DNA from: a virus
IMG/VR virus record: IMGVR_UViG_3300046837_000274
Length of the DNA stretch: 64,000 bases
Strand: one strand, 5' to 3'
Shown here piece after piece: positions 1,866 through 33,731 of the stretch. A program made the translations under genes and the position numbers. The notes beneath the pieces were generated by a model. It was not told the DNA's origin. It searched no databases and saw nothing but the letters and a program-made list of their open reading frames with translations. Within the stretch, counting starts at the first letter, position 1, and every line of letters starts with the position of its first letter.

Positions 1866-1866
1866 G

Positions 1867-4827: not shown

Positions 4828-4988
4828 CACAAATATCCCGTCCCCAGCAGCACGAGCAGGATGATGATCAACAGGAAGCTGGTGCCACTCGGATAGTAGC
4901 CCCACTCGTAGTCTGCCATGCGTGGCGACGTCGGCAGTAACCCGAGCGCGACCAAGAGCAGGGCGAGGATGAGAATGCTTACCAGCAC
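4827..4988 (-). CDS. small two-TM membrane protein, DUF3309-like
   Basis: 53 aa from GTG 4988: VLVSILILALLLVALGLLPTSPRMADYEWGYYPSGTSFLLIIILLVLLGTGYL. The layout (TM, 'W.Y.PSG', TM) recalls DUF3309. Start codon uncertain. Confidence 0.4.
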   Translation of the reverse strand: MLVSILILALLLVALGLLPTSPRMADYEWGYYPSGTSFLLIIILLVLLGTGYL

Positions 4989-5716
4989 GGCGCGTCCTCC
5001 CGGTGAAACGCGAACGAGCCTATCCCCTCGCGTCCCGCCCTTGTCTCCGCATCGTTCGATTCGACCAGCGCCCAGCCGAGCCGTGCCATTAGGCGCGTCA
5101 GACCGGCTTCGGTGAAATACCAGTAATGCTCGTCCCGGCGATAGTGTTTCGAACGCAGCACGTGCGCCGAGCCTTCGAAGATCGGAACGCTGATGAAGAC
5201 GAACTGGCGCACGCGCGCGAGCAGCGACGGGAAGTCGGCGATGTGCTCGATGCTGTCCCAAAATGTGGCGGCATCTACGCCGTGCAGATACGGATCACGG
5301 AAGCAGTTGTGCTTGATCAGCCAGCGAACTGCGGCGGGGTTGATGTCGAAGCCCTTCGAATCGTCACCGATAGCCTCGATGAAGGATCCGCAGCCGATGC
5401 CGACATCGACGACCGCGCCCGGCCAGTGCCGCCGCACGAGCGAGACGCGCTGACGGTTCAAGAGCCTGCCGCGCGCCGTCTTTGCGTAGCCGACATATTT
5501 CGCGAAATAGGCTTCGTCATATACCAGTGTGATGTCGGGCACCGGATAGAAGCCAATGTCGAACTCGACGAACCATTGCAGGCTGTCTTCAGTGCGCAGC
5601 AGCCTGATCAGAGATTGATCGATCCACGCCACGCTTGCCACTGCTGCATCAGATCGGGAATATCCTTCCGGCACTGGTGATGTTGATCGCTGCAAAGGCA
5701 AAGCGTCTCCGGCCAT
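4979..5716 (-). CDS. class I SAM-dependent methyltransferase
   Basis: Motif I 'VVDVGIGCGSFIEAI', 'GFDINPAAV' and 'FWDSIEHIADFPSLL'. Start uncertain: GTG at 5641 or 5632 would shorten the 109-nt overlap with the upstream gene. Confidence 0.65.
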   Translation of the reverse strand: MAGDALPLQRSTSPVPEGYSRSDAAVASVAWIDQSLIRLLRTEDSLQWFVEFDIGFYPVPDITLVYDEAYFAKYVGYAKTARGRLLNRQRVSLVRRHWPGAVVDVGIGCGSFIEAIGDDSKGFDINPAAVRWLIKHNCFRDPYLHGVDAATFWDSIEHIADFPSLLARVRQFVFISVPIFEGSAHVLRSKHYRRDEHYWYFTEAGLTRLMARLGWALVESNDAETRAGREGIGSFAFHREDAPCW

Positions 5717-6483
5717 GCAAACCCCACTAACCTCGCGTCCATGCGCGGATCGATGATCTTGTCGGGAGCGTTAGCCCCGCCGTTTCCGCCGAGCACGATG
5801 AAGGCAGGAGTGTGCGCTGCTATGGCTGCTGGAACAATCCATCCGACGCCGCCCACCAGCAGCGCTGCATTCTGCACGGATGCAAGCAGTTGGCGCGTCG
5901 AGAGTTCGCCGTTTGTCAGCGCGTAGTTGTGCGGGGGCATCTCGCCCTCGATCCACTCTTCCCCCGCCGACAAGTCGCAGACGACCACCACCGCGTAGCC
6001 GCGCGCTTTCAAATCGCCCGAGATCTGCGCGACGTATTCCGGTCGAGGGTTGCGCGACGGGTTCGGCCAGTCCTTGCGCACGACGCACGGTCGTACGATC
6101 ACCAGCGGGGAGTCAGACGTGTCGAACGGGCAGGGGCCCATGTCCGGGAGGTCCCAGAGCGGTCGCGCGACCGGCTCCATCTGGTGCGCCATCGCTTGAT
6201 AGACGTTGCCCTGGGAGAACGCCTCCGCGCTGTAGTAGAGGGTGCGCGTCTCGGCGACCGCAGGGCGGGGCGACCAGCGTGAGGGAAGCTGGCGCTTCAT
6301 CTGCGCCGCCTGCACCCGCAGCGTCGTCGGAGGCTCGATGAACCTGACCGGGAGGTCCTCGTAGAGTTCAGGCCACGGCGTCTCGCAATAGACGTCACGC
6401 TTCAGCGCCTGATCGCGGATCACCGGGCGGATGTAGATCGCGTCTCCCAGCCCGTAGGGACAGCGCAGGACGAGCGGCGTCAA
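5608..6483 (-). CDS. GT-B glycosyltransferase, family 9 (heptosyltransferase)-like
   Basis: Start reset to TTG 6483 (TTGA overlap with the upstream stop). The first 114 aa of the track ORF are Arg/Ala junk. 'LRCPYGLGDAIYIRP' and 'STRQLLASVQNAALLVGGVGWIVPAAIAAHTPAFIVLGG' fit the GT9 pattern. Confidence 0.55.
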   Translation of the reverse strand: MTPLVLRCPYGLGDAIYIRPVIRDQALKRDVYCETPWPELYEDLPVRFIEPPTTLRVQAAQMKRQLPSRWSPRPAVAETRTLYYSAEAFSQGNVYQAMAHQMEPVARPLWDLPDMGPCPFDTSDSPLVIVRPCVVRKDWPNPSRNPRPEYVAQISGDLKARGYAVVVVCDLSAGEEWIEGEMPPHNYALTNGELSTRQLLASVQNAALLVGGVGWIVPAAIAAHTPAFIVLGGNGGANAPDKIIDPRMDARLVGFAWPETLCLCSDQHHQCRKDIPDLMQQWQAWRGSINL

Positions 6484-7310
6484 GCGGCCTGCTCGACCCC
6501 GCGCGACAGCAGCGCCTGCATGCGCAGCAGCCGGTCGCGCTCGCCGTGGAAGGAACGCACGACGGGCCGGTCGGACTCCATGTGCTTCTCGACCCAATTG
6601 AAGCGGTTCGGCAGGATCGTCAGCAGGTTGCGCCAACGCCGCTGATTCATCAGTTCGATGAGCGCTCCCTGGTCCTCCCATTTCATATGCGGCGGCATCG
6701 CTTGCCACGCGGCTACGAAGGCGCGCACCTCGTCGGAGGACGCCAGCCACACCACCCCCGTGTTGAGATGTCGCGGCGTCGTTGGGCTGTCCCAGCACTC
6801 GCAGAGGCCGACCCCCCACGTGCACGTGCTGAACAGGTCCACGCTCGCGTCAACGATGATGCTGTCGGCGTCGAGCCAGAGCACCTGTTCGAAGCCGCGA
6901 TCCAGCGCCCAGCCCATCATTTCGACTTTGCGCCAGTGCAGGGGGCGCACGACTTTCTTCGGGCGGTCCTCGCGCTGCGCGATGAACTCGACTCCCCAGG
7001 CGGCGCAGTAGCGCGCGTGCACGTCTGCCGTCAGATCGAGCATGCGCACGAAGTCAGCGCCCGCAGCGAGTTGCAGCAGCGCGCGCTTGCCAGCCCTTGG
7101 GCGCGGTCTGGGACGCGGTGGAGGCGACCCGTCAGCGGGCGCATCAGCCATCACCTTGATCCGTGTCCCGTCTCCTACCGCCGGGATAGCCAGCCCAGAC
7201 AGCTTCAGTTCCCGCGCCCTGTTTTCGGGTGCGAAAAACTCCATTCCCGGATAGACCTGACCTTCACGGTCCCAGTTGATCCAGGGCACGAGCGCAACCA
7301 TGCGGATCAT
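6480..7310 (-). CDS. GT-A glycosyltransferase-like protein (GT8/GT34-like, DXD)
   Basis: 276 aa. A ~50-aa N-domain and a Pro-rich linker ('PPPRPRPRPR') are followed by 'VLWLDADSIIVD', 'LNTGVVWLAS' and 'WEDQGALIEL'. ATGA overlap upstream. Confidence 0.6.
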   Translation of the reverse strand: MIRMVALVPWINWDREGQVYPGMEFFAPENRARELKLSGLAIPAVGDGTRIKVMADAPADGSPPPRPRPRPRAGKRALLQLAAGADFVRMLDLTADVHARYCAAWGVEFIAQREDRPKKVVRPLHWRKVEMMGWALDRGFEQVLWLDADSIIVDASVDLFSTCTWGVGLCECWDSPTTPRHLNTGVVWLASSDEVRAFVAAWQAMPPHMKWEDQGALIELMNQRRWRNLLTILPNRFNWVEKHMESDRPVVRSFHGERDRLLRMQALLSRGVEQAA

Positions 7311-9647: not shown

Positions 9648-10859
9648 TTAGGCGAGCGTGCCGTAGGTGAACGCCTTCGGACGATAGACCGCCAGCGCCA
9701 CCCGCTCTTCCGCGCGGATCGTAATCATGTTGCGCACGAAGTTGTCCTGATCTTCGGTCGAGATGAGGACTTCAATTGCCATGCGGTCGAACAACTGCGC
9801 ACCCATGCGGAACGCACCAGCGAGGAAGTGGCTGACCGTCATAGCCTGCGTGTCGACGACCGGCAGGTTCCAGAGCCGCTTGCCGATGGCTCCGGTGGGA
9901 TCGCCGACGATGTAGCGGTTCTGCGCATCCTTGGTTAGCTCGATCTTCGCCCAATCGGTCGGGTGGAGAACGAAACCAGAAGCCGGGTAGAGCGCGAGCG
10001 TGGCTTGCAGCGCCGCCAGCCGCAGGGTGTCGATGTTCTGCAACGCGGTCGGCGTGAACGCTGCCGAGTAGGCCGTCGCCTGCGGCACGATGCCGAACAG
10101 GTGCTGGCCGGTGCCGTCGCCGTAGAGGATTTCGCCCTCTTCGACATATTGCAGACCCCAGCGCAGACGTCCGTCGATCGTCGATTGCAGCATCGGCGCG
10201 TCGTCGAGAATCTGCCGTGACGCCTTCATGAAGTGCGCGATGGTGCGAACCGGCGTGCTCTTCAGATCGAAGGTGATGTTCGACTGCGGCTTCAGCGCCC
10301 CTTCCGAGACCACCGCTGCCTTGTTCGACGCCGCCGACTGAGGATCGTCCGTTTCGACTGCATACTCGATGGCGTTGCTGGTGGTCGAACCCGGCATCAC
10401 GAGGTCACGGACGACCAAAGGGCGGAGCGGAGCCTGCACCATCCCCACGCGTTCCGGAATCACCAACGACGTCGCCGCCGAGACGCCGGTGCCCCAAGTC
10501 GCGCTGCCGCTCATGATGTCCTTCAGTTCGATAGTCACGCGCGCCTGCCCGTTCTTCCGCTGCAAGAGCGCTTTGACTTCCTCGTTCTCGACCACAAGCT
10601 GGCCGATGCTCTTGCTCTGCGCAGGGCCATCACCAGGGCGACGGGCCATCTTCTGCTCGATCTCGCCGACGCGCGCGCCAAGCTCGTTCATCGCCGACAG
10701 CGCCTTGTCGGCGTTCGCTTTCGTCTCGGCGGTGACGTCGCCGAGGGCCTTCATCTCGGCCTGCGCCTTCTCCGCGAACTTTTTGACTTCGTCGGTCGCG
10801 TTCTTCAGGTCGACGGCAAGCTGCTTGAGTTCAGTTGTGCCGGTATCGTCGAGTGGCAT
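9648..10859 (-). CDS. major capsid protein, HK97 family
   Basis: 403 aa. N-terminal coiled delta-domain-like region, then typical HK97-fold blocks ('GTGVSAATSLVIPE', 'VRDLVMPGSTTSNAIEYAVE', 'GDPTGAIGKRLWNLPVVDTQAM'). Follows the protease gene. Confidence 0.9.
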   Translation of the reverse strand: MPLDDTGTTELKQLAVDLKNATDEVKKFAEKAQAEMKALGDVTAETKANADKALSAMNELGARVGEIEQKMARRPGDGPAQSKSIGQLVVENEEVKALLQRKNGQARVTIELKDIMSGSATWGTGVSAATSLVIPERVGMVQAPLRPLVVRDLVMPGSTTSNAIEYAVETDDPQSAASNKAAVVSEGALKPQSNITFDLKSTPVRTIAHFMKASRQILDDAPMLQSTIDGRLRWGLQYVEEGEILYGDGTGQHLFGIVPQATAYSAAFTPTALQNIDTLRLAALQATLALYPASGFVLHPTDWAKIELTKDAQNRYIVGDPTGAIGKRLWNLPVVDTQAMTVSHFLAGAFRMGAQLFDRMAIEVLISTEDQDNFVRNMITIRAEERVALAVYRPKAFTYGTLA

Positions 10860-10877: not shown

Positions 10878-11924
10878 TTAAGCTGCGAGTGAGAAACCAC
10901 GAAGCGCGTCCGCAATCGTCTTCATCGCGTCCGCAGTCGCTTCAGCCACCACCGCCGCAGCCTCATCCCGAGGCGTCGTCGCTGCTTTGAACCCGTGAGC
11001 GGCTATCTCGCGGGCCAAGCGATTCGAGTATCCCGCATCCCGCAGGACCGCCTCGAAATCGCGGATCGTTTCCGGCCTGCTGACCGACTTCGGCTCATTG
11101 CCGGACAGGCAACGGTATGCCGTGCGCAGGCAATCCTGCAACTGCTGCCGCTCGTCGACGGTGGGAGAGTCGCCGCCCGCCAGCGTCTGATTGTGCAGCT
11201 TGATGGCGTTCGTCACCGCCGCGAGCGCGCCAGCATGATCACCGTGCGCCAGCGTCGATTTGACTGCCGCGATCTGCGCCTGTGGGTTTGACGGCTCGCG
11301 CACGATGTCGACGCTGAACAGGTTCAGCTTCTTGAGCCAGCGCTTCGGCTCGCCCGGCTTCTTGCCATAATCGGCCCCGCCTTCCGGCACTTGAAACGCA
11401 ATCGAGAGGCCCTTCATCGCCCCGTCGCGCATCAGGCCGATGACGCGTTTGGAGTGGTCACTGTCGAGCGCGCTGATCTTGCCGGTTCCCTTCAGGCCGT
11501 TTTCGTCTTCCTCCATATTGAGCCAGACGCCGACCGGCAGCGGATCCCCGCCGAACATGGCGAACGAGTGCTCGACGAACAGGCCGGGCATCTCGCCCTT
11601 CGCTTTGAAGTCAGCGAGGCTTTCACTGAATGCGCCGGGCAGGACGATGTCACCGTGCCAGTCCATCGTGTTGAAGACGCTGCCGTGGCCTTCGAACGTG
11701 CCCGGCTCGACCCCGCTGCCCTCGACGAACTTGAACTCGACAGGGGCCAGGAGACGTCCGACCGATTTTGCCGCCTTCGGATCGAACAGATCACAGACGT
11801 CGGACGCCGCGATCTTGCCCTGGACATCAGTGCAGCCGCTTCCGGTGAACATCGAGCACTTGCCGCAGTTTCGCGCCGAGCTTCCGGTTCGGTAGTTAGC
11901 ATCCGCCTGCGTCATTTTGGCCAT
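10878..11924 (-). CDS. HK97-family prohead protease with N-terminal Cys-rich domain and C-terminal scaffold-like tail
   Basis: 348 aa. 'FEGHGSVFNTMDWHGDIVLPGAF', 'GVWLNMEEDENGLKGTGKI', 'GLSIAFQV', 'LFSVDIVREPSNP'. N-terminal 'NCGKCSMFTGSGCTDVQGKIAASDVCDLF'. Confidence 0.85.
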   Translation of the reverse strand: MAKMTQADANYRTGSSARNCGKCSMFTGSGCTDVQGKIAASDVCDLFDPKAAKSVGRLLAPVEFKFVEGSGVEPGTFEGHGSVFNTMDWHGDIVLPGAFSESLADFKAKGEMPGLFVEHSFAMFGGDPLPVGVWLNMEEDENGLKGTGKISALDSDHSKRVIGLMRDGAMKGLSIAFQVPEGGADYGKKPGEPKRWLKKLNLFSVDIVREPSNPQAQIAAVKSTLAHGDHAGALAAVTNAIKLHNQTLAGGDSPTVDERQQLQDCLRTAYRCLSGNEPKSVSRPETIRDFEAVLRDAGYSNRLAREIAAHGFKAATTPRDEAAAVVAEATADAMKTIADALRGFSLAA

Positions 11925-11972: not shown

Positions 11973-13310
11973 TCACGCAGCGACACCTTCTCGCGTGGTC
12001 GTCTGCCCTTCGGCTGCCGTGGTGCCGCCGGACTGAGACGTTCCTTCTGGCGGCTTGTAGCCTGGAGGCAGTGGCTTATCCGCCTTCCCACGCACGAACT
12101 CACCCAGCAGTTCAATCGGCAGCAGCGCCGCGTTCACCGTCAGATCGTCACCGCCCTTCATCGGCGGGTCGTTCTCCAGCGCGCGCACCTCGTTGCGCGT
12201 CTTCAGCCCGTGATCGACCATCGTCGCGTAGAGCCGAGCGCGCGTGTTACTGTCAGCGCGCAACAGCCCCTCGACATTGAATTCGCAGTAAACGTCCCGC
12301 CGCTCGCCGGGAACCAGCAGGCTTTTGCTGATCCGCGACTCGATGCGTCGCAGTTGCGGACGCAGGCAGAATTGCAGGAACCACAGGAGCATTTGCTCCA
12401 GGCCGCTGCCCCACGCCGTGGCGCTCTGGGTGTGCCCGATCATCGGCGGTGGCACGCCATACCAGCGGCAGAGTTCCTCGACGCCGAACTGGCGTGTGGT
12501 TAGAAGCTGCGCGTCTTCGGGCGGGATAGAGAGGCTGTCGAGTTTCCAGCCCCCTTCTAACAGTGGCACCTTTCCGCTGTTGATCGCTCCCGCGTAATCC
12601 GCGACCCACTCATCCTTGCGCTTGCGCTGCTCTGGCGTGAGGTATGTCGGCGCTGACAGCACGAGCGACGGGCGCATGCCGTTGCGAAAGAACGTGCCGG
12701 ACGCGCGCTCGGCGGCAATAGCTGAGCCGATCGTCTGCCGCCCCTGCTCGATGATCGAAAGACCGTAGAGCCCATCTAGAGAAAAGCCTTTCAGGTGGAA
12801 GATTTCCTCTTCCATTAGCTCGACGGTCTGCCCCATCCAGACGTAATAGTAACGGACCGAGCCGTCCGTCTGTTTGCGCGGCTGCACGCGATCAGGCCGC
12901 ATTGGTATCAGCGAGATAACACGCTTGCCGCTCCAGATGATCTGCGCGTAGGCGTTGCCCCACAACAGCAGTGATCCCACCATCGCTTCCCAGAACTCGA
13001 CCGCCGTCATGTCCGCGTTCGGAGAGTCGTGCAGGATGGTGAACAGCGGATGATCCCGCGCCAGCGTGCCGTAGTCGTTCTTGTCACGCGTGTAGGTCAG
13101 CAGCGGCAAGGTGGCGACGGTCTGCGCGATCAGGCGCACGCAAGCCCAGACAGCGGATAACTGCAACGCGGTGCCCGCGCTGACGACTTCCCCGGCGAAG
13201 TTGACCCCGCCGCTGAAGAACCCGACGAGTCGCGGATCGCTGATGTTGATCGCGCGCGCGACCGTGGTGACCGCCTTTAGCCGCAGCCGTTGCATCAGCG
13301 TCGACATCAC
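11973..13310 (-). CDS. portal protein, HK97 family
   Basis: 445 aa between terL and the protease. 'VWACVRLIAQTVATLPL', 'LLWGNAYAQI', 'RASGTFFRNGMRPS', 'WGSGLEQMLLWFLQFCLRP'. Confidence 0.9.
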   Translation of the reverse strand: MMSTLMQRLRLKAVTTVARAINISDPRLVGFFSGGVNFAGEVVSAGTALQLSAVWACVRLIAQTVATLPLLTYTRDKNDYGTLARDHPLFTILHDSPNADMTAVEFWEAMVGSLLLWGNAYAQIIWSGKRVISLIPMRPDRVQPRKQTDGSVRYYYVWMGQTVELMEEEIFHLKGFSLDGLYGLSIIEQGRQTIGSAIAAERASGTFFRNGMRPSLVLSAPTYLTPEQRKRKDEWVADYAGAINSGKVPLLEGGWKLDSLSIPPEDAQLLTTRQFGVEELCRWYGVPPPMIGHTQSATAWGSGLEQMLLWFLQFCLRPQLRRIESRISKSLLVPGERRDVYCEFNVEGLLRADSNTRARLYATMVDHGLKTRNEVRALENDPPMKGGDDLTVNAALLPIELLGEFVRGKADKPLPPGYKPPEGTSQSGGTTAAEGQTTTREGVAA

Positions 13311-15088
13311 AGGGTCACCGGATCGCTCATGAAGCCTTCCATCCCCGCGCTCGGGTCTTCGTCCATGCTACGCCCAATCGCCATGATGAGACTGGTTATT
13401 CCATCAATTCGCGCGACCGAGTGCTTTTTCGAAGGCATTCGATTCTCATTGCGGTCGGTAACGGCCATCATCGACGATGCCATCCATGTGAGGACTTCGT
13501 TGCCGCCGTGGTCAAGCTTTTCGCTCAGCAGCATGGCCTCTAACTCTTTTGTCGGTGCAGTGTAAGAGCGAATCCCCTGGATGAACTCGCTCATCGGCAC
13601 CCCTTGATCCGCAAGCGAGACGGCGAGGCTAGCAGCGTTCCACGGATCATAGGCGCACGTGATGCACTCCCCCAGCCTGCAATCCTCCACCACCGCATCG
13701 AAGATTTCGCTCTGATCCACGACGTTTCCCTGCGTGACCTCGATCAGACCCTCGTCGATCCAGCGGCGGTATTGCACCCGATCCCGGTCGCTCTTCTCTT
13801 CGACAGTGAACGCGGGCATCCAGAAGCGCGGCACGATGCGCCAGCGCGTCTCTTCCCCTTCGGGCGGGAACAGCTTGACCCACGCCGTCAAATCGACCTT
13901 CGAACTGATATCCAGCCCGCCGTAAAAGCGCCGCCCGTGCATCAGCGCCGGGTCGAACGGGCCAAGCGTGTTCTTCGCCCATACCGCCATGTCGATTGCA
14001 CGAACAGCCGATGACGTGCGCAGATTGAGCCGCAAGCGCTTGAACGACGCCAGCGCCGGGGGTGAGCGGGCCGCTTTTTGCGCCTGCCGCTTCAGATCGG
14101 ACAGCTTCAGGCTTATCCCGAGATTGGGGTTTGCCTTGATCCAGACCTTCGGATCGTCCCAGCGGTCTTCGCGATCGAGCGTGTAGACCAGCGCGAAGTA
14201 GTTATCGTCCTCGACCGTGCCTTCCAGCACTTGAATCGCGTAGGCGTTCTCGGCCGCATAGACGGACTCCGGGTTGTCGTCGCCAGCGGTCGTGATCAGC
14301 CACAGCAGCGGGTTGCGGCGCGCGCCCAGCGCCGTGTCGAGCACGTCGAGCACCGCGCGCGTGCGATGCTTGTGCAGTTCATCGACCAGCACGAGATGCG
14401 GATTCAGCCCGTCCAGCGTGCGGTCATCCGCCGACAGCGGTTCGAACTTCGATCCGGTGCTGTCCATCGCAATGTTGTATTTGAACACCGACAGCACGTT
14501 GAGAAGGTCAGGTGATCGCCGGGTCATCTGCTGCGCTTCGGAGAAGATGATGCGCGCCTGATCGCGCTTCGTCGCCGCCGCGTAAATCTCCGCTCCCGGC
14601 TCATCGTCCGCGACCAGAGCGAACAATCCCAGCCCCGCAGCCGTCGTGCTCTTGCCGTTCTTGCGGGCGACTTCCTCGTAGGCCGTGCGAAAGCGCCGCG
14701 TGCCGTCAGCGCGAAACCAGCCGTAGACGGATCCGATCGCGAACTCCTGCCACGGCGAGAGGTTCAGTTCTTCCCCGGCCCACTCGCCCTTGCTGTGGCA
14801 CAGGTATTCGGGAAAGAAGGTGATCGCGTAGCGCGCCCACTTTTTGTCGAACTGAAGCCCGCGCTCGGCACCGGTGGCGAGGTCGGCGAAGTGCCGCTCG
14901 GCAGCGAGGATGAGGTAGCGGCAGGCAGTGATGCGACCGTCGAGCACGTCCCACGCGTAGGCAGTCGCCGAGTCTACCCCACGGTGCGGGCGATGATCCG
15001 GCACGGTGATCTGCCCGCGCAGCGTCGAGCCGGAGCCGATGCGCGGCGCACGCCAGCCGACCATCGACGACGCGCTGGCTTTCGCCAT
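13307..15088 (-). CDS. terL: terminase large subunit
   Basis: 593 aa. ATPase blocks 'ARKNGKSTTAAGLGLF' and 'HLVLVDELH', and a nuclease-half block 'YGGLDISSKVDLTA'. ATGA overlap with the portal gene. Confidence 0.9.
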   Translation of the reverse strand: MAKASASSMVGWRAPRIGSGSTLRGQITVPDHRPHRGVDSATAYAWDVLDGRITACRYLILAAERHFADLATGAERGLQFDKKWARYAITFFPEYLCHSKGEWAGEELNLSPWQEFAIGSVYGWFRADGTRRFRTAYEEVARKNGKSTTAAGLGLFALVADDEPGAEIYAAATKRDQARIIFSEAQQMTRRSPDLLNVLSVFKYNIAMDSTGSKFEPLSADDRTLDGLNPHLVLVDELHKHRTRAVLDVLDTALGARRNPLLWLITTAGDDNPESVYAAENAYAIQVLEGTVEDDNYFALVYTLDREDRWDDPKVWIKANPNLGISLKLSDLKRQAQKAARSPPALASFKRLRLNLRTSSAVRAIDMAVWAKNTLGPFDPALMHGRRFYGGLDISSKVDLTAWVKLFPPEGEETRWRIVPRFWMPAFTVEEKSDRDRVQYRRWIDEGLIEVTQGNVVDQSEIFDAVVEDCRLGECITCAYDPWNAASLAVSLADQGVPMSEFIQGIRSYTAPTKELEAMLLSEKLDHGGNEVLTWMASSMMAVTDRNENRMPSKKHSVARIDGITSLIMAIGRSMDEDPSAGMEGFMSDPVTL

Positions 15089-15271
15089 TCACGGCGTCTG
15101 ATCGTCGTTGCGGTGCATGAAACGCTTCACCTCATCAACGTCTGACGGCTCTACTCCCTGCGAACGCAGGTAGGCTTCTGCCTGCTCGCCACGCAGGCGT
15201 AGCTCTTCGGCCACTGCATCAGTGCGCGCGCGACGCTGCGCGGCGTAAGCCGCCTGCCTTGGGTCTTCCAT
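15089..15271 (-). CDS. hypothetical protein
   Basis: 60-aa charged helical ORF between terS and terL. Confidence 0.4.
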   Translation of the reverse strand: MEDPRQAAYAAQRRARTDAVAEELRLRGEQAEAYLRSQGVEPSDVDEVKRFMHRNDDQTP

Positions 15272-15798
15272 CAGTGCATCACTGGGCGCGGCGGCGCGTT
15301 CGCAACGTATTCGGCCAGCGGGACGTGCTTGCGCTTGCCCTGCTTCGTGTCGGCATGCGGCAGCTTGACCTCGGGTCCGAGCGGCTGCGCGTAAGCGCGT
15401 GCTCGTGCTGTCGGCGAGAAGCCCAACTCCCCTGCGGCCTTCAGCATGATCATCGCCTGCTTGTTCATGATGCCGAGATAGAGCGACGGAAACGGCATCG
15501 GCATGCCGCGCTGGCGCATCAGCAGCGTTTGCGTCGTGCGCAGCAGTTCCGCAGCGCGGCGGTGGGTGTCTTCAGCCACCACCCAGACCGCCAGCACGCC
15601 TCTGTCCAGGCGGCGCAGCAGCCCCGGCGGTGCGCTTGCCAGCGCGTGCCTCCAGCCGTCGACCTGTTCTTCCGTCAGCCAGTGCGGAGGGTCTTCAAGT
15701 GAGCCTGGAGCCTGCGGCTCGGCGTCGTTCATGCGCCGATGCCCGGTCTTGCCGTGCAGCTTCGCCAGCGCGGTCGGCTTCGGCTTTCGCCCTTTCAT
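15271..15798 (-). CDS. terS: terminase small subunit, P27 family
   Basis: 175 aa. 'MKGRKPKPTALAKLHG...PPHWLTEEQVDGWRHAL' is the P27-type N-terminus. Lies directly upstream of terL. Confidence 0.8.
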   Translation of the reverse strand: MKGRKPKPTALAKLHGKTGHRRMNDAEPQAPGSLEDPPHWLTEEQVDGWRHALASAPPGLLRRLDRGVLAVWVVAEDTHRRAAELLRTTQTLLMRQRGMPMPFPSLYLGIMNKQAMIMLKAAGELGFSPTARARAYAQPLGPEVKLPHADTKQGKRKHVPLAEYVANAPPRPVMH

Positions 15799-16666
15799 CC
15801 CTCATCTCCTTCAGATTGGTCAGTCGCATTCCGAATTCGTTGATTCTGTCATCGACGCTGACCCCTTCTCGGAGCACTGGCCGATTGTGACGAAACGGTC
15901 GGTAGTCAACCTGATGGTGCCAGCGTCCATAGCGCGTCACCAGCTTCGTCACGTCGGGGCGGAGCGCCACCAGCATCTGGCTTTTCGGCAGCGTGCCACC
16001 GACGTAAATCGTGTCGGTGTTACCTCCCTTCATGTGCAAGGTGCGAACTTTTTTTTGCAAAAAGGCATTGAAAAGCACCGTGCACCAGCGGGCTTTGAGC
16101 ATGCGCAGACTCAAGTCCGTGTCTTCATTGTAACGGCCACGCCACCGAAACGGCACGTCATTGCGAATCAAATTGCATGAATAAATACGGGTATTGAACG
16201 TCAGCGGAGGGCGCACTCCCCGGCGCGGAGCGAACGACTCATAGTTCGGTCCTGCCATCGCGATGTTGCGATAACGCAGGCAGAAGTCCTCCACGGCATA
16301 GAACATCGTTCCGTCAGCGACCGGAACTTTGGCGTTCCGATGCCAGCGATAGAAGCGCTGAATGTTGTCATCGACTGTCCAATGCCACTCTGCGCCCTGT
16401 CTGATCGCGTGCTCCCAAGCGAAATTGCGTGCCGGTCCTGATCCTCGCCCTTTCCCCACGCCACGCGCGTCACAGGTGTCATACGCAAGCTGAAAGGCGG
16501 GGTCGAGGGTTAGAACCTCTCCCTTGATCACCTTGCGGTAGGCATCACGCTCCTGCTCTTCGACAATGATGTAGTAAGGCACTCGCAGTTCATCGAATGC
16601 GCGAGCCGTCAGGCGGCTTTCCCACCTTCCCTTACTGACAATGTAGACGGGAAAACGGGGGTTCAT
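15695..16666 (-). CDS. GT-A-like glycosyltransferase, paralog 2 (possibly TET/JBP-associated GT / GREB1-like family)
   Basis: 323 aa, alignable over its full length to 16663..17526. Shared blocks 'VYIVSKGR', 'GSGPARNFAW', 'WHWTVDDNI', 'NEDTDLSLRMLKA', 'GGNTD'. The 3' end overlaps terS by 104 nt. Confidence 0.45.
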   Translation of the reverse strand: MNPRFPVYIVSKGRWESRLTARAFDELRVPYYIIVEEQERDAYRKVIKGEVLTLDPAFQLAYDTCDARGVGKGRGSGPARNFAWEHAIRQGAEWHWTVDDNIQRFYRWHRNAKVPVADGTMFYAVEDFCLRYRNIAMAGPNYESFAPRRGVRPPLTFNTRIYSCNLIRNDVPFRWRGRYNEDTDLSLRMLKARWCTVLFNAFLQKKVRTLHMKGGNTDTIYVGGTLPKSQMLVALRPDVTKLVTRYGRWHHQVDYRPFRHNRPVLREGVSVDDRINEFGMRLTNLKEMRDERAKAEADRAGEAARQDRASAHERRRAAGSRLT

Positions 16667-17526
16667 GCCGCTATCAGCCGCAGGCCATGTTCATCCGCGT
16701 TAGAAGGGATCACCAGTCCGTCTCGCAGCACCGGCTTTATGTGAGCGAACGCGCGGTAATCCACATAGTGATGCACCCTGCCGAAGCGCTGCGTGATCCG
16801 CGTCACGTCCGGGTGCAACGCTACGATCATACGGCTCTTCGGCACCGTGCCGCCTCGGTATAGCTCGTCTGTGTTGCCGCCGCGCATCGTCAGCGTCGTT
16901 TGTTTCGCCTGAAGGAAGGCGTTGAAGAGCACCGTGCACCATGACGCTTTCAGCATCCGCAGCGACAGGTCGGTGTCCTCGTTGAAGCGCGCGCGCCAGC
17001 GAAATGGCAGATCGGTTCGAATCAGGTTGCAGGAGTAGATGCGGGTGTTGATCGTGAACGGAGGAATAAGCTGTCTGCGCTTGGCGAAGAAGACGTAATT
17101 GGGCCCTACCATGCCGACGTTCTGATAGCGCTCGGCGAACTCCTCCATGAGCCGAAAGCACGAGCCGTCTGCCAGCGGAATCTTCAGATTGTGCGCGAGC
17201 CGGTAGAATGCCCTGATGTTGTCATCGACTGTCCAATGCCACTTCGCTCCAGCCGCTTTGGCGTGATCCCATGCGAAGTTGCGAGCAGGTCCAGAGCCGC
17301 GCGTCTTGTTTCCTCCATGCGCGTCGCAGGTGTCGTAGTCACGCTGATATGCCGGATCGAGTACCAGTATCCTGCCCGGGTCGATTACGGCGGCGTATAG
17401 GTCGAATTCCTGCCGCTCGACGATGATCCGAAACGGCACCTGCATCCGTTCCAGCGCTTTGACTGTCAACCGGCTGTCCGCTCGGCCCTTGCTCACGATG
17501 TAGATCGGGTGGTGCGGGTTGGTCAT
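16663..17526 (-). CDS. GT-A-like glycosyltransferase, paralog 1
   Basis: Start reset to ATG 17526 ('MTNPHHPIYIVSKGR' aligns with the paralog's N-terminus). 287 aa. ATGA overlap with paralog 2. Confidence 0.45.
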   Translation of the reverse strand: MTNPHHPIYIVSKGRADSRLTVKALERMQVPFRIIVERQEFDLYAAVIDPGRILVLDPAYQRDYDTCDAHGGNKTRGSGPARNFAWDHAKAAGAKWHWTVDDNIRAFYRLAHNLKIPLADGSCFRLMEEFAERYQNVGMVGPNYVFFAKRRQLIPPFTINTRIYSCNLIRTDLPFRWRARFNEDTDLSLRMLKASWCTVLFNAFLQAKQTTLTMRGGNTDELYRGGTVPKSRMIVALHPDVTRITQRFGRVHHYVDYRAFAHIKPVLRDGLVIPSNADEHGLRLIAA

Positions 17527-18235
17527 CGACTTTCCATCGCTGGTTAGCTTGCGCGACACGCGGCTCGGCAGGATGCCAGAGATATTTCGTCTTGTCAGTT
17601 ACCGACTGACCCATGCGATTCGCGAAGTCGTCCACGCCGCTCTGGTCTTTGAAGTGCACGACGATCGAGCGCCACGCCATCAGATCGTCCTGCGAGAACG
17701 CGGGCATGCCGCCCCACTCGCGATTCGGATCGAAGTCGCGATCCGGCTCCAGCAGGTGCACCAGTTCAGCCTCGCCGAAGCCGAGCAGCGTCACGTCGAA
17801 CGAAGACGCTGCCAGTTCGCCCACTTCCTTGATCAGTAGCTCCTGCGACCAGTCGGCGTTCATCGCCAGCTTGTTGTCGGCGATCACGTAAGCCCTGATC
17901 TGCTCGGGCGACCAGCCGCGCGCGACCATCACCGGTATGTCCGGCAGGTTCAGCAGCGCCGCTGCCCGTGTTCGCGCGTGCCCCGCGATCAGCACCCCCT
18001 GCTCGTCTACCAGCACCGGCATCGTCCAGCCCCACTGGCGGATGCTGTTCGCAAGCTGCTCGATCTGCTCGGGACTGTGCAGGCGCGCGTTGGCCAGATA
18101 CGGCTTCAGCGACGCAATCGGGCGACGCTCGATCTTGTCGGCAGGCCACGCTCGGGGCTGTCGCTCTGCTGACGCAGGGGGAGCAGGCTTCCCGGCAGGG
18201 GGTCGAGGGGGACGCTTCGCTGCTTTGCGTGCCAT
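17339..18235 (-). CDS. ParB/Srx-fold N-terminal domain protein
   Basis: 298 aa. 'IASLKPYLANARLHSPEQIEQLANSIRQWGWTMPVLVDEQGVLIAGHARTRAA', and 'GWSPEQIRAYVIADNKL'. The last ~60 codons run 188 nt into the next gene in another frame. Confidence 0.7.
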   Translation of the reverse strand: MARKAAKRPPRPPAGKPAPPASAERQPRAWPADKIERRPIASLKPYLANARLHSPEQIEQLANSIRQWGWTMPVLVDEQGVLIAGHARTRAAALLNLPDIPVMVARGWSPEQIRAYVIADNKLAMNADWSQELLIKEVGELAASSFDVTLLGFGEAELVHLLEPDRDFDPNREWGGMPAFSQDDLMAWRSIVVHFKDQSGVDDFANRMGQSVTDKTKYLWHPAEPRVAQANQRWKVDDQPAPPDLHREQGPSGQPVDSQSAGTDAGAVSDHRRAAGIRPIRRRNRPGQDTGTRSGISA

Positions 18236-18259: not shown

Positions 18260-19090
18260 TCAGACAAGCAAGGTTCGTCGCCAACTCTTGCTGCGGTTCT
18301 GGTGCTTCGACAGTGGCCGCAGGTTCGTCAGCGCCCACGCTGCGCGGAACTCGGGATCGTCGGCGCTGGTGAATGAGAACGACGCCAGCGGCATGACGTG
18401 ATCGATTTCCCACACTGACCCGTAATTGTCCCACGACATCTTCGCTTTGAACTGCCGAGCGAGATGCGCCATCAGGTCCGTCGCCGTGTAACCCGCCAGC
18501 TTCTCCCATGATCGACCGTTCTTCTGTCGGAGCAGAGCTGTCGCTACTGCTGTTCTCATCGCCCTTGAAATCCGCTCTTTCGGCTGGCTGTTTCGATGCT
18601 GCTTGCGGCACTTTGCCGAGCAGTAAAGCTGGTTCGCTCGCCCTTCGAACGACGCGCTGCACACACGGCAGCGTCTGGTCAGTTCGATCCCGCACATCGG
18701 CGAGCAGTAAAGCTGGCTCGCAGTAGTCTTCGTGAATGATCCGCTGCACTTCGGACAGGTAAGCGTGCTTCCGACTTTGGCCATTTTCACAGGTCGACGT
18801 GCGTCGCGGATGTGGATCTTCTCGGCATTCACGATTGGGCGGCAGGTGTCGCAATACCGGTGCGACATCCACCTGCTGATGAATGCCGCCTTGCATCTGA
18901 CGCATGGTTGCACTCGTGCCATGCTCTCGCGAGTGCGCTCCCCCCTCTCTCGTCGTCGGGCTTGCACGCGTCGCAGTTCGTGTTCTCGGTCGAGCGCCTT
19001 GCGGCAGGGGGCGCAGTAGCGCTGACCATTTCCTCGTGGCTCGTAGCCCCTCTTGCAACGCCAGCACTGTTCCGTGTGCAGACCATTCAT
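18260..19090 (-). CDS. HNH endonuclease with four N-terminal CxxC...CxxC zinc-ribbon repeats
   Basis: 276 aa. Four repeats (for example 'CVRCKAAFISRWMSHRYCDTC'), then 'WEIDHVMPLA...NLRPLSKHQNRSK' (HNH). GGGGG Shine-Dalgarno 8 nt upstream of the ATG. Confidence 0.75.
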   Translation of the reverse strand: MNGLHTEQCWRCKRGYEPRGNGQRYCAPCRKALDREHELRRVQARRRERGERTRESMARVQPCVRCKAAFISRWMSHRYCDTCRPIVNAEKIHIRDARRPVKMAKVGSTLTCPKCSGSFTKTTASQLYCSPMCGIELTRRCRVCSASFEGRANQLYCSAKCRKQHRNSQPKERISRAMRTAVATALLRQKNGRSWEKLAGYTATDLMAHLARQFKAKMSWDNYGSVWEIDHVMPLASFSFTSADDPEFRAAWALTNLRPLSKHQNRSKSWRRTLLV

Positions 19091-27096: not shown

Positions 27097-27639
27097 TTAG
27101 CTGGCGTGATTTCTATTCCGGTCGCCAGCATGTCCGGCATCGCTCGGGCGCTTCGCAAGCTGCGGGCGGCCCGTGCGTCGGTAGCGCGCGCGCTCGACAT
27201 GAGACGGCGCTTTGTCGTCATAAGATTCTGCGACCGCGTCGCGTAGCGCGCGATGCGCCGCTTTCGACAGGCCGAAGTCTTCGTAACCCTGCTTGATCAC
27301 GTTCAGGTAGTAGGCTGACGGCGGGAAGATGCCGGTCGAGTTCATCACGTAAATCAGCATCTCTGACCCGTGCTCTGGAAACGCGTTGATGGGGACATAC
27401 TCTTTGCGATACAGCCCGCCGCGCACCCCTTCGTAGAGGTCGAGTTCCTTTTCGCACTCGGACGTGATCGCCCAGATACCGCCGTGGCAGACTGCGCCCG
27501 CTTCGGCGATGCAGTCGGCGACGCCCCGGAACACGAGACGACGTCCGCGCAGTTTCATCCGCGCCAGAGGCACTGCGTTCGGGCAACGCCGCTCCATCTG
27601 CTCCATGTTCAAGTTGGAGCCGTAAGCAAACATCAGCAT
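27097..27639 (-). CDS. gamma-glutamylcyclotransferase (GGCT/AIG2-like) family protein
   Basis: 180 aa. 'MLMFAYGSNLNMEQMERRCP', 'GGIWAI', and 'LDLYEGVRGGLYRKEYV' (candidate catalytic Glu context). Basic C-tail. Confidence 0.7.
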   Translation of the reverse strand: MLMFAYGSNLNMEQMERRCPNAVPLARMKLRGRRLVFRGVADCIAEAGAVCHGGIWAITSECEKELDLYEGVRGGLYRKEYVPINAFPEHGSEMLIYVMNSTGIFPPSAYYLNVIKQGYEDFGLSKAAHRALRDAVAESYDDKAPSHVERARYRRTGRPQLAKRPSDAGHAGDRNRNHAS

Positions 27640-27640
27640 G

Positions 27641-27877
27641 TCAGGATCCCTTGTACTCGACGCCCATGGCAGTCATGCCGAGAGCGAGTGCGGAACAGGC
27701 GAGGCCGATATACTTCGGCACGTCGTGCTGGCTGTTCTCCCAGCGCGTCCACGCGCCCCGCGAGCAGCCGAGCGCTTTGCATGCGTCGCGCTGCGAGTAG
27801 CCCATGCGCTCGCGCCACGCAGCCAGCGTCGCCCCCGCGAGGGGGCTTGCGCTGTTCGTCTCGATCTTGTTGGCCAT
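27641..27877 (-). CDS. XRE-family HTH regulator
   Basis: Start reset to ATG 27877 behind AGGAGA with a 7-nt spacer. 'LAAWRERMGYSQRDACKALGCSRGAWTRWENSQHDVP'. Confidence 0.65.
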   Translation of the reverse strand: MANKIETNSASPLAGATLAAWRERMGYSQRDACKALGCSRGAWTRWENSQHDVPKYIGLACSALALGMTAMGVEYKGS

Positions 27878-27903
27878 GATGCAGTCTCCTGTGGTTGCAG
27901 TGA

Positions 27904-28917
27904 TCACGCTGCCCACGCGACCGGCGCGGACAGCGCCGACGTGCGAGCGCGGAAGTAAGCGATTTCGGCGGCTTCGGCTTCGATGGTTGTCATCAGCGCG
28001 GAGAACGTCGACGGGGTCGCGTCGACGACGGACCCGCCCTGCGCGAAGTAACGAGCGTTGCGGCCCTGACGAACGACCGTCAGACGCAGGCCAGTCGCCT
28101 TCTCCAACTGCGACACTGTCAGCGAACCCCAGCCCGTCGCCGCCTTGACTTCGCTCCCGCTGACGCCCTCGGGGCGCATCGCCAGATCGCCGACGATCCG
28201 GCTCTTCGTTCCGTGACGCGCCCGGTTGATCTGTGCTTGCACTGTCGAGATTGACTTCCCGGCGCGAGCAGCGGCGACCATCCGGAGGCAGAACTTGGCC
28301 CAGGCGACGGCTTTGCTGCCCTCAAGGGTGCCCGAGTGCTGACGAAATTCAACCGTCTGATAGCGGCGGTAGGACGTCAGGTTCAGCTTGTGATAACGCG
28401 CGTCCATCGCGCCCGCCGGGAGCGTGCGAATGACTGAGTCAAGATCGGTCGCGACATTGATCGCGGCGACGTTCGCCGACGTGACTGAGCGGCAGTAGGC
28501 GTTGGCGCTCGCGCGGCGCGACGGCGGCATGAAGCAGTCGATGACCGGCTCGAAGTGTGCGTAAAGCTTCAGCAGGTTCTTGAAAAAGTCGATCGGGGCG
28601 TTCGCAGCGCCGACGTGCACGTGAAGCCCGCACTTCTTGCTGACGGTGCACCCGAAGTCGGTCAGCGCTTCCATCACGAGCACGACAGCGTCGAGGCCCG
28701 CTTGCCCGGTGAGGATCGGAGACACCACTTCGATGCCCCGGCGAACGTCACCCAGCGACCCGTCAGTTACGATCTTCCAGTGCGGGCGCGTGCCGTGATT
28801 GTAGCTTTCGGCGAGGCAGTAGATGCCGCGAGCGAGGATCGCTTGCGCAGCTTGTGAAGCCGTCGCCCCCTCGGGCAGGTAGCACTCAATTTCAATTCCG
28901 AAAGTCGCGTTCAACAT
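27904..28917 (-). CDS. amidoligase (Amidoligase_2, GS/GCS2-like) fused to a DUF3489-like winged-helix tail
   Basis: 337 aa. 'FGIEIECYLP', 'WKIVTDGSL', 'GIEVVSPIL', 'CGLHVHVG', 'QTVEFRQHSGT'. C-terminal 'LAMRPEGVSGSEVKAATGWGSLTVSQLEKATGLRLTVVRQGRNARYF'. Confidence 0.7.
   Translation of the reverse strand: MLNATFGIEIECYLPEGATASQAAQAILARGIYCLAESYNHGTRPHWKIVTDGSLGDVRRGIEVVSPILTGQAGLDAVVLVMEALTDFGCTVSKKCGLHVHVGAANAPIDFFKNLLKLYAHFEPVIDCFMPPSRRASANAYCRSVTSANVAAINVATDLDSVIRTLPAGAMDARYHKLNLTSYRRYQTVEFRQHSGTLEGSKAVAWAKFCLRMVAAARAGKSISTVQAQINRARHGTKSRIVGDLAMRPEGVSGSEVKAATGWGSLTVSQLEKATGLRLTVVRQGRNARYFAQGGSVVDATPSTFSALMTTIEAEAAEIAYFRARTSALSAPVAWAA

Positions 28918-31730: not shown

Positions 31731-31731
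<1 letters not shown>
31519..31731 (+). CDS. hypothetical protein
   Basis: 70-aa ORF behind cassette copy B. Confidence 0.45.

Positions 31732-33731
<2,000 letters not shown>

Follow-up and report, generated by a model that had tools for sequence, protein, structure and literature searches.

The window, that is, the whole stretch of 64,000 nucleotides of viral DNA analysed here, carries a module in which a ParB-like gene is followed by two tandem glycosyltransferase genes and then by terminase genes. The ParB-like ORF (17339-18235, 298 aa), GT-1 (16663-17526, 287 aa from its ATG, or 298 aa from an alternative GTG start at 17559), GT-2 (15695-16666, 323 aa) and terS (15271-15798) all lie on the minus strand, where the earlier note had placed them; terS, recognised by Pfam Terminase_4 at 1.1e-7, is the downstream boundary of the module and terL (13307-15088) comes after it. 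GT-1 and GT-2 overlap by 4 nt (ATGA), the ParB-like ORF runs 188 nt into GT-1 (17339-17526) and GT-2 runs 104 nt into terS (15695-15798). These lengths are as first reported, whereas the description of the packing as unusual did not hold: overlaps of at least 100 nt occur in 11 of 140 related modules under the same ORF definition, and the gene packing is therefore not special. The ends of both ORFs behave as read-through tails (17339-17539, minus strand, for the ParB-like ORF; 15695-15817, minus strand, aa 284-323, for GT-2). Third-position GC (GC3) in the tail frames of the overlaps is 0.30-0.53 against 0.70-0.83 in the frame of the downstream gene, with 0.30-0.40 in the ParB-tail frame against 0.70-0.83 for GT-1, and across the GT-2 tail it tracks the terS frame. 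The family alignment stops at '...GMRL' (GT-2 aa ~283), leaving a conserved GT-2 core at 15818-16666 (minus strand, aa 1-283) and variable tails beyond it. The ParB tail differs from the close relative L174 at 63 sites, 60 of them nonsynonymous in the ParB frame, and in the terS overlap all three differences are synonymous for terS and two of the three nonsynonymous for the GT-2 tail. Ribosome-binding sites precede both downstream starts (GGAAAG ahead of the ATG at 17526 for GT-1, AGGAG ahead of the ATG at 15798 for terS). The long overlaps exist, yet by codon usage and divergence they are unconstrained read-through with no coding signal of its own. A programmed frameshift or functional overlapping tails was rejected, since the tails carry the codon bias of the downstream gene and are not conserved.

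GT-1 and GT-2 are TAGT-family GT-A glycosyltransferases with conserved catalytic motifs. Pfam TAGT (PF20691, cutoff 27.5) matched GT-1 with 136.7 bits (E 1.3e-39) and GT-2 with 142.4 bits (E 2.3e-41), from profile position 1 or 2 to 205 of 205, so that a resemblance proposed in the earlier note is borne out over the full profile length; the PHROG family of both proteins is PHROG 842, 'beta-glucosyl-HMC-alpha-glucosyltransferase'. An AF2 model of GT-2 (pLDDT 86) has the GT-A fold, as the predicted layout had suggested. In Foldseek searches the model matched POMGnT1, LH3, COLGALT1, GpgS and K4CP in the PDB at E about 1e-5, and TAGT-domain phage proteins in BFVD with E up to 2e-28, including a T-even-type beta-glucosyl-HMC-alpha-glucosyltransferase; the TAGT profile, run against PDB sequences, gave no match, and no NCBIfam model matched either protein. 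The residues R14, D99-D100-N101 and E181-D182, which include the acidic motifs singled out before ('VDDN' and 'NEDTD'), occur in both paralogs and show conservation of 98% or more across 147 homologs, the active-site variants being DDN/EDT here versus the DDD/EDY(F) reported for 5mYOX-linked enzymes. GT-1 reads WRARFNED where the family has WRGRYNED.

The two proteins align over their full length with 63% identity over 282 aa (E 3e-138), and all the shared blocks quoted in the earlier note were found. A 28-nt exact repeat shared by the two genes (two exact matches, none expected by chance, on a background of 62% nucleotide identity) covers the codons of WHWTVDDNI (DxD-type), at 17216-17243 on the minus strand in GT-1 and at 16362-16389 in GT-2; there the relative reads WHWVMDDNI and WHWVVDDNI. 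A recent in-situ duplication was rejected on account of the 62% nucleotide identity and the saturated synonymous sites, and also because each copy is nearer to TAGTs of other phages (67.7% and 68.5%) than to the other (63%). Comparison with L174 revealed that GT-1 alone has been swapped between near-identical phages and is a variable, swappable cassette: identity is 88-99% across ParB, GT-2 and terS (GT-2 is 95% identical in amino acids to P0001 in the relative) and 0.87-0.99 in the sequence flanking GT-1, and only 0.64-0.83 in nucleotides and 72.6% in amino acids for GT-1. One could suppose that GT-1, GT-2 or both are duplicates in decay and that the overlaps are sequencing or assembly errors, given the long ORF tails and a GC3 of 0.65 in GT-2 against a phage average of 0.80. 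We consider this highly improbable and it is largely refuted by the conservation data, since both paralogs retain 72 of the 74 columns in which the family is conserved to 90% or more, synonymous changes exceed nonsynonymous ones in the GT-2 core relative to L174 (34 versus 16), and 9 contigs, independent of one another and drawn from several samples, encode the identical ParB protein, with the same gene order, a 298- or 291-aa ParB and a 323-aa GT-2 where complete in three of these places and in L174.

The ParB-like gene matters more than the earlier note supposed. Pfam ParB_N (PF02195) matched its product marginally (2.8e-6, 27.7 bits against a cutoff of 26.3), TIGR00180 reached 29.4 bits, below its cutoff of 58.45, and the best PHROG assignments were PHROG 620 (1.3e-46) and PHROG 498, 'DNA methyltransferase' (3.7e-42). 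Its ParB/Srx-type N-terminal module (17735-18160, minus strand, aa 26-167), composed of a nucleotide-binding domain and a helical segment, is 72% identical to the N-terminus of the ParB_N + N6_N4_Mtase fusion P0142 and 64% to that of P0191, and it matches positions 4-145 of the PADLOC MTase_II model. Judging by its motifs, the protein probably lacks the features of a chromosome-segregation ParB, a CTP-dependent clamp: Pfam found no family match to an HTH DNA-binding domain, and where the canonical CTP motifs are GERRxRA and ENLQR, direct reading gives GHARTRA and ADNKL. The link to methyltransferase fusions drawn in the earlier note stands for the ParB module only. The resemblance ends at residue ~167, the PF01555 methyltransferase domain is absent from the ORF according to Pfam, and the strings 'GMPAFSQDD...VVHFKDQ...TKYLWHP', taken before as a ParB-methyltransferase linker, belong instead to a small domain (SD; 17540-17734, minus strand, aa ~168-232) that is specific to glycosyltransferase partners; a linker role was accordingly rejected.

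SD comprises ~55 aa with the consensus EWxGMPEFxQxD...IxVHF...EDVxxFAxLIGQxITxKTKxIWFP, belongs to no Pfam family and forms clusters with 3,457 representatives at 50% identity among 1.84 billion proteins. It is an obligate partner of this TAGT subfamily: in 156 of the 157 loci that could be evaluated (from 165 related loci of many phyla) it is either a neighbour of the TAGT or part of the same protein. The SD segment is all that is matched by short upstream ORFs (76-104 aa) and by the N-terminal extensions that fused TAGTs carry, each of three standalone SD proteins retrieved independently is followed by a TAGT, and fusions occur of SD with TAGT and, in one case, of ParB nucleotide-binding domain, SD and TAGT. 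The ParB/SD gene lies directly upstream of the TAGT or is fused to it, with a median gap of -11 nt. An AF2 model of SD (pLDDT 87) has little regular structure when modelled alone and had no match in a fold search against the PDB. SD may act as a docking or targeting element; it is acidic rather than basic and for that reason is unlike a DNA binder.

Our findings suggest a late, ParB-assisted module that glycosylates the phage DNA just ahead of the packaging genes, an explanation to which we assign about an even chance. The ParB-like protein would be an adaptor whose N-terminal ParB-type module engages DNA or times the reaction and whose C-terminal SD docks the TAGT glycosyltransferase or glycosyltransferases; GT-1 and GT-2 would be active GT-A enzymes that use a nucleotide-sugar as donor to glycosylate phage DNA after its replication and ahead of its packaging, producing either two different marks (in sugar, linkage or sequence context) or a disaccharide. 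GT-1 would be an exchangeable cassette, as expected of a trait under host restriction pressure, and the acceptor would not come from a TET/JBP dioxygenase or a hydroxymethylase. We infer that DNA is the substrate, that the module is co-transcribed with the terminase genes and that it serves against restriction. The points in favour of DNA are TAGT membership, the GT-A fold, the ParB/SD linkage, the likeness of ParB to methyltransferase modules, the GT-1 swap and a sugar epimerase, an NAD-dependent epimerase/dehydratase being found downstream of the TAGT in 8 loci. The points against it are the lack of a hydroxymethyl-pyrimidine source in the window, in the 165 loci and in a complete 47.6-kb phage, the acidic SD, and the protein target of GREB1 (PMC7968844). 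Between DNA and virion glycosylation, the context leans to DNA; virion or sugar modification has a candidate of its own in the separate cluster at 1011-7310.

A further point against DNA is that, to our knowledge, every characterised DNA glycosyltransferase needs a hydroxymethyl-pyrimidine hydroxyl. The earlier note saw no base-activating enzyme in the window, and Pfam scans of essentially all plausible window ORFs agreed with this, finding no Tet_JBP, thymidylate-synthase-like hydroxymethylase or C5 DNA methylase; nor was a dCTPase family found in the window. Single-sequence PDB searches of three unknown window proteins for a hidden dioxygenase gave no match. No TET/JBP, hydroxymethylase or C5-methyltransferase recurs in the 165 related loci, and the annotation of the complete 47.6-kb phage, which carries an SD-TAGT fusion, contains no hydroxymethyl-pyrimidine source. 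The TET/JBP neighbourhood from which TAGT took its name is thus missing here, a contextual feature of the family and not a sequence criterion. We propose, tentatively and with more doubt than for the module as a whole, that SD-associated TAGTs may glycosylate DNA without prior hydroxymethylation, on a canonical base, a common methylated base or another position, with SD, often on a ParB-type clamp-like module, providing the targeting. Ordinary TAGT chemistry on 5-hydroxymethyluracil or 5-hydroxymethylcytosine, with a dioxygenase or hydroxymethylase too divergent or too distant to be recognised, would be consistent with the many window ORFs that have no family match, with the thousands of phage contigs that match 5mYOX profiles and have no Pfam TET/JBP annotation, and with ParB being a frequent 5mYOX neighbour (PMC13229309). 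Against it, the 165 loci show no further gene family that keeps returning beside the module, the non-structural neighbours with the largest clusters being DnaB (in 15 loci), an uncharacterised 267-aa protein (in 10) and the sugar epimerase; DNA hypermodification pathways are usually clustered (bioRxiv 10.1101/2023.12.21.572611); and the Aeromonas phages Aeh1 and 65 have the SD-TAGT fusion without genes 42 and 56 (PMC2993671). We regard it as distinctly unlikely.

A protein target, whether the ParB-SD protein, a terminase, another virion-related protein or one of the host, with SD as recognition or acceptor element, is in our judgement unlikely. The TAGT relative GREB1 O-GlcNAcylates a protein (PMC7968844), SD is acidic and poorly structured in isolation like a docking or substrate segment, the module adjoins morphogenesis genes, and SD is also fused to a TcdB/Gly_transf_sug-like glycosyltransferase, of a family with protein-glycosylating members. 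The invariant or near-invariant residues of SD, however, are W, M-P, F, F, Q, W and P, with no invariant Ser, Thr, Tyr, Asn or Arg, and a role as conserved glycosylation acceptor is unlikely because no invariant nucleophilic residue is present. Terminase genes are the commonest downstream neighbours across the 165 loci, the module usually lying just upstream of them, and since these packaging genes come from three or more terminase families that are unrelated, there is no one structural protein with which the module co-varies. In lytic phages, and where it stands apart from the terminase, the module is surrounded by genes for replication and DNA modification, such as those for DNA polymerase, helicase, DNA methylase and dUTPase, and the ParB module is one common to DNA methyltransferases. 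Another nucleic acid or a small molecule (tRNA base, nucleotide or metabolite) as target, or a function in superinfection exclusion or defence instead of marking of the phage's own DNA, has in our view a slim chance: the GT-A structural neighbours do include nucleotide-sugar and phosphoglycerate-directed enzymes (GpgS, MpgS), but neither glycosyltransferase matches any PADLOC defence model, and this reading would not explain why the enzymes are so strictly linked to a ParB-type DNA module or why they are encoded before the terminase genes.

Previous studies offer partial parallels for DNA glycosylation by such a module. Some members of the TAGT family are taken to act on sugars already attached to DNA (PMC13390438; PMC2993671). 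The T2/T6-type beta-alpha-GT shares Pfam TAGT and PHROG 842 with GT-1 and GT-2, that of Klebsiella phage PKO111 is a structural match to GT-2 (E 1.3e-10), and as second-sugar transferase in a two-glycosyltransferase phage this enzyme is a precedent for the pair; neither SD nor ParB was seen as its partner, its tblastn match being below 1e-10 and outside the 23 records examined. It is nevertheless only about 14% identical to the proteins described here and acts on glucosyl-hydroxymethylcytosine made via dCMP hydroxymethylase, and neither this enzyme (gp42) nor the dCTPase (gp56) of the T-even glucosylation system was found in the window. Phage GT-A enzymes glycosylate 5hmC in DNA, and the TET/5mYOX-associated ones (Burke 2021, PMC8256090; bioRxiv 10.1101/2023.12.21.572611) share the GT-A fold, the R...DD(D/N)...ED layout, a post-replicative logic and frequent ParB, terminase, epimerase and second-GT neighbours; unlike the present module, in which none was detected, their pathways have their own C5-methyltransferase and/or 5mYOX to make the hydroxymethyl acceptor, and they read DDD and EDY/F in place of DDN and EDT. 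In the passages of these two papers that were consulted, no mention of an obligate SD partner was found. ParB-like proteins activate phage thymine dioxygenases on double-stranded DNA (PMC13229309): ParB176, needed for 5mYOX176 action on that substrate, likewise has no obvious DNA-binding domain and is genetically coupled to a DNA-modifying enzyme, but that partner is a dioxygenase; in the window and the related loci no dioxygenase was detected beside ParB, which in the window is directly followed by GT-1. The C-terminal dimerisation domain of ParB176 is set apart from SD by description. In the ParB_N + N6_N4 methyltransferase fusions the shared module spans about 140 aa; here SD replaces the methyltransferase domain and the catalytic partner is separately encoded. 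The base J glucosyltransferase JGT and the animal protein GREB1 are GT-A enzymes related to TAGT (PMC7968844; bioRxiv 10.1101/2023.12.21.572611) and both are set apart by description, JGT requiring 5hmU made by JBP and GREB1 having a protein target.

Glycosylation of phage DNA is a major means of evading restriction and CRISPR and a source of enzymes for epigenetic sequencing. All the cases known to us begin from a hydroxymethylated or hydroxylated pyrimidine, and a published survey reportedly put aside about 65% of phage GT contigs, no precursor enzyme being present. From this unexplained class a defined system now emerges, expressible as two or three genes, with a constant, small, uncatalogued partner domain usually on a methyltransferase-type ParB module and one glycosyltransferase that is swapped. 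If DNA is glycosylated without prior hydroxymethylation, the chemistry of this DNA modification would be new, and phages and prophages from dozens of bacterial phyla would have it. With no fewer than 7,988 clusters of proteins at 90% identity, the subfamily is very large, and its phages and prophages belong to Proteobacteria, Bacteroidota, Acidobacteriota, Verrucomicrobiota, Actinomycetota, Cyanobacteria, Firmicutes and candidate phyla. Against cultured phages, megablast returned only a 42-nt near-identical match, in the methylase gene of Verrucomicrobia phage P8625; cultured carriers of the module include the Aeromonas phages Aeh1, 65 and phiAS5 and Vibrio phage 1.124.O, and it is also present in a prophage of Pantoea stewartii ATCC 8199.

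The two tandem TAGT-family (PF20691) glycosyltransferase genes of the window, GT-1 (16663-17526) and GT-2 (15695-16666), form part of an obligate module whose other component is a small domain (SD) of about 55 aa, located at residues ~168-232 of the ParB-like protein encoded upstream (17339-18235; Pfam ParB_N), all three on the minus strand. As observed in 165 loci, gathered from 5 protein look-ups, 80 IMG/VR and 80 GTDB contigs with one genome per species, the arrangement of the window, a protein with a ParB-type nucleotide-binding domain (NBD) and SD followed by a separate TAGT, is present in 108. A short SD protein (<150 aa) precedes the TAGT in 27 loci, an SD protein of at least 150 aa with no detectable NBD in 5, and SD and TAGT are fused in 16, one of them also with the ParB NBD; the upstream sequence is absent from the record in 8 loci, and a single locus has no SD. 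The median distance from SD to TAGT is -11 nt. With the SD profile as the only query, three standalone SD proteins were retrieved, and a PF20691 gene comes immediately after each of them. Further architectures include tandem SDs, a protein of 979 aa with five SD and two TAGT stretches (P0384), and a protein of 315 aa that joins SD to a Gly_transf_sug/TcdB-like glycosyltransferase in place of a TAGT (P0370), both from the SD profile search. The partner in this last fusion belongs to a different GT-A family; SD hence goes with the task and not with the TAGT fold. Hosts in the GTDB set range from Pantoea, Erwinia and Chryseobacterium to Acidobacteriota, Verrucomicrobiota, Frankia, cyanobacteria and candidate phyla.

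An earlier note on this DNA had taken the C-terminal half of the ParB-like protein for the linker that leads into a fused methyltransferase. The kinship with methyltransferase-fused ParB proteins stands for residues 26-167: compared with the N-terminal modules of two ParB_N+N6_N4-methyltransferase fusions, they show 72% and 64% identity, and they match a PADLOC type II methyltransferase model at positions 4-145. This likeness ends at residue ~167, and the strings quoted as linker fall within SD. Short ORFs (76-104 aa) that precede TAGT genes have a match confined to this segment, as have the N-terminal extensions of two TAGT proteins of cultured phages, NVP1124O_57 of Vibrio phage 1.124.O (387 aa) and ORF0218 of Aeromonas phage phiAS5 (399 aa). 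No Pfam family was found for SD, and when 1.84 billion representative proteins were searched with its profile, 3,457 SD-containing clusters emerged. Its AlphaFold2 model is confident (pLDDT 87) but, modelled alone, is nearly devoid of regular secondary structure and gave no fold match in the PDB, a result that fits a segment folding against a partner. Conservation falls on aromatic or hydrophobic residues (W, M-P, F, F, Q, W, P), with no invariant nucleophile among them. The whole protein is a member of the ParB/Srx superfamily, but it is none of the segregation ParB, ParB-methyltransferase or 5-methylpyrimidine dioxygenase (5mYOX)-activating ParB proteins as these are defined.

The earlier note had likened the two proteins to the TAGT family, and the Pfam scan bears this out, with matches over the whole PF20691 profile for GT-1 (E 1.3e-39) and GT-2 (E 2.3e-41); GT-1 also matches PHROG 842, 'beta-glucosyl-HMC-alpha-glucosyltransferase'. 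No solved TAGT structure was detectable by sequence search of the PDB. The AlphaFold2 model of GT-2 (pLDDT 86) resembles the GT-A enzymes POMGnT1, the LH3 GT domain, COLGALT1, GpgS and K4CP in the PDB (E ~1e-5, TM 0.36-0.45) and, in a viral structure library, TAGT-domain phage proteins and the beta-glucosyl-HMC-alpha-glucosyltransferase of Klebsiella phage PKO111. An alignment of 147 non-redundant homologs has 74 columns with conservation of 90% or more, of which GT-1 and GT-2 each retain 72, R14, D99-D100-N101 and E181-D182 among them; leading into the NED motif, GT-1 reads WRARFNED as against WRGRYNED. Sequence, fold (modelled for GT-2) and motifs place the pair in the Pfam TAGT family; the TET association that gave the family its name is lacking.

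The two proteins share 63% identity over 282 aa (E 3e-138), and every shared block on which their paralogy had been proposed is present. A recent duplication was considered and rejected, since synonymous sites are saturated at 62% nucleotide identity and each protein has a nearer match among the TAGTs from other phages (67.7% and 68.5%) than in its partner. Against this background, an exact repeat of 28 nt covers the WHWTVDDNI codons in both genes (16362-16389 in GT-2 and 17216-17243 in GT-1, minus strand), where the close relative L174 has WHWVVDDNI and WHWVMDDNI. The repeat suggests a small gene-conversion tract at the putative active site (DxD-type motif). The comparison with L174 is the most informative result on the pair: nucleotide identity is 0.88-0.97 in ParB and 0.87-0.99 from GT-2 through terS, and it falls to 0.64-0.83 in GT-1 (~17550 to ~16730), with protein identities of 94-95% for ParB and GT-2 and 72.6% for GT-1. 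Because GT-1 alone diverges between near-identical flanks, we regard it as an exchangeable cassette. A second TAGT gene is rare, occurring in 5 of the 165 loci; apart from these, P0033 is a fusion of two domains, and in L045 a TAGT is fused to an FkbM methyltransferase. The only other locus with two conserved-type copies is in the Verrucomicrobiaceae MAG JAIXZA010000150.1 (L098, 7944-9859), where the tandem TAGTs are 56% identical and overlap by 4 nt; this pair arose independently of that of the window.

What speaks most against DNA glycosylation is the lack of a hydroxymethyl donor pathway. The earlier note had seen no base-activating enzyme in the window, and Pfam scans that took in practically every plausible ORF agree, yielding no Tet_JBP, thymidylate-synthase-like hydroxymethylase (ThyS) or C5 methylase; PHROG and PDB-sequence searches with the larger unassigned ORFs found no such enzyme either. 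No base-activating family recurs in the 165 loci, and none is annotated in the complete 47.6-kb Vibrio phage genome. A caveat to these Pfam results is that many phage 5mYOXs escape Pfam, as reported in a study of thymine dioxygenase (PMC13229309). The Aeromonas phages Aeh1 and 65, which carry the SD-TAGT fusion, lack genes 42 and 56 (PMC2993671), and the Aeh1 glucosyltransferase was tabulated in a later survey as modifying an 'unknown base' (PMC8056088). In a large-scale mining study, about 65% of ~25,000 phage glycosyltransferase contigs had no 5mYOX or ThyS neighbour and were set aside (bioRxiv 10.1101/2023.12.21.572611); the window falls in this unexplained majority. Glycosylation of protein instead of DNA, which we consider less likely, is the main alternative. 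In the head-tail gene interval, the cluster cited in the earlier note (3506-7310, minus strand) encodes Methyltransf_24 and Methyltransf_23 SAM-methyltransferases, a 405-aa protein without assignment and a weakly matching Nucleotid_trans GT-A-like protein (E 0.0022); as a candidate for modifying virions or sugars, this cluster stands apart from the module.

The most economical reading, to which we give an even chance, is that the module glycosylates DNA after replication and is expressed together with the packaging genes; DNA would be the substrate and SD a presumed accessory. The ParB-type module would engage DNA or time the reaction, as suggested by its occurrence in DNA methyltransferases and by the precedent of a phage thymine dioxygenase that requires a ParB-like protein to act on double-stranded DNA (PMC13229309). 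SD may tether the glycosyltransferase or help it to find its acceptor, and the two TAGTs may yield two marks or a disaccharide, as do the glycosyltransferase pairs of T4 and T2/T6 (PMC2993671; PMC13390438; PMC13216743). Turnover of GT-1 could reflect selection by modification-dependent restriction. Within the DNA reading, the module has no third gene as a regular companion, which makes an acceptor not requiring hydroxymethylation likelier than an overlooked precursor enzyme. That ParB is associated with DNA-modification enzymes in phages, and that TAGTs without TET exist, has been described before; in the part of the literature that was covered, which does not include Iyer et al. (2013), no earlier description was found of the obligate SD partner, the fusion patterns or the GT-1 swap. 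The target of 'orphan' phage TAGTs, a long-standing loose end, becomes a defined experiment, and cultured carriers exist: Aeromonas phages Aeh1, 65 and phiAS5, Vibrio phage 1.124.O and a prophage of Pantoea stewartii ATCC 8199 (NZ_CP046558, at about 3.60 Mb).

The genes of the module occupy the minus strand in a tailed-phage genome of high GC (~64%). Downstream on the same strand follow terS (15271-15798; Terminase_4), terL (13307-15088; from position, size and TerL_ATPase/TerL_nuclease matches of the JGI gene call), the portal (11973-13310; by position alone), and the prohead protease (10878-11924) and capsid (9648-10859) from the family scan. Neighbour clusters among the 165 loci are large terminases, which fall into three different families (53, 26 and 13 loci), portals (27 and 11), capsid (22), terS (18), DnaB (15) and a 267-aa protein without assigned function (10). 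In 8 loci an NAD-dependent sugar epimerase/dehydratase gene stands directly downstream of the TAGT (for instance L059 9629-10480; PF01370, 7e-38), so that some phages may provide a nucleotide-sugar donor of a non-standard kind. An identical ParB protein is found on 9 metagenome contigs, and the module lies at differing offsets on Ga0495651_0000087 (67,735 bp) and Ga0495680_0000174 (67,621 bp), indicating a circularly permuted assembly of a phage genome of ~67.6 kb, most of which the window represents. Directly upstream of ParB, a protein of 276 aa (18260-19090, minus strand) contains four zinc ribbons of the CxxC type and, at its C-terminus, an HNH motif (PHROG 1271, 7e-9; GmrSD_C weakly, 0.032), and is not recurrent beside the module in other loci.

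The overlaps of ParB with GT-1 (188 nt) and of GT-2 with terS (104 nt) had been described correctly, as re-derived ORF coordinates confirm; between GT-1 and GT-2 the overlap is ATGA. The unusual packing read into the two long overlaps does not hold up: both are read-through and no feature in their own right. Third-position GC in both segments follows the frame of the downstream gene (0.70-0.83) and not that of the upstream gene (0.30-0.53); the TAGT family alignment stops at '...GMRL', with variable C-terminal tails beyond; 60 of 63 differences from L174 in the ParB tail are nonsynonymous, and all three in the terS overlap are silent for terS. Under the same ORF definition, overlaps of at least 100 nt occur in 11 of 140 related modules. 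GGAAAG precedes the GT-1 ATG at 17526, and AGGAG the terS ATG at 15798. Public gene calls for L171, L172 and L174 (window 17446-17526) begin GT-1 27-51 codons late (260 or 236 aa), apparently so as not to overlap the ParB ORF; these starts are wrong, because the invariant PxYIVSKGR motif is lost.

Elsewhere in the genome, a 222-aa protein (49703-50371, minus strand) begins with a signal-like segment and carries a PEP-CTERM sorting motif (8.5e-5) at its C-terminus. In the early region, 27097-28917 (minus strand) encodes side by side an Amidoligase_2 protein (PF12224, 8.5e-39) with C-terminal DUF3489, a GGACT/AIG2-like gamma-glutamyl cyclotransferase and a small protein with an HTH; the first two form a phage amidoligase/GGCT pair. 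A SNF2 helicase similar to ZorD/DpdE-type helicases, an MT-A70 adenine methyltransferase (3.3e-22) and a protein with a ribosome-modulation-factor-like segment (1.8e-5) are encoded at 31731-33731 (plus strand), 38131-39183 (minus strand) and 41925-42701 (minus strand).
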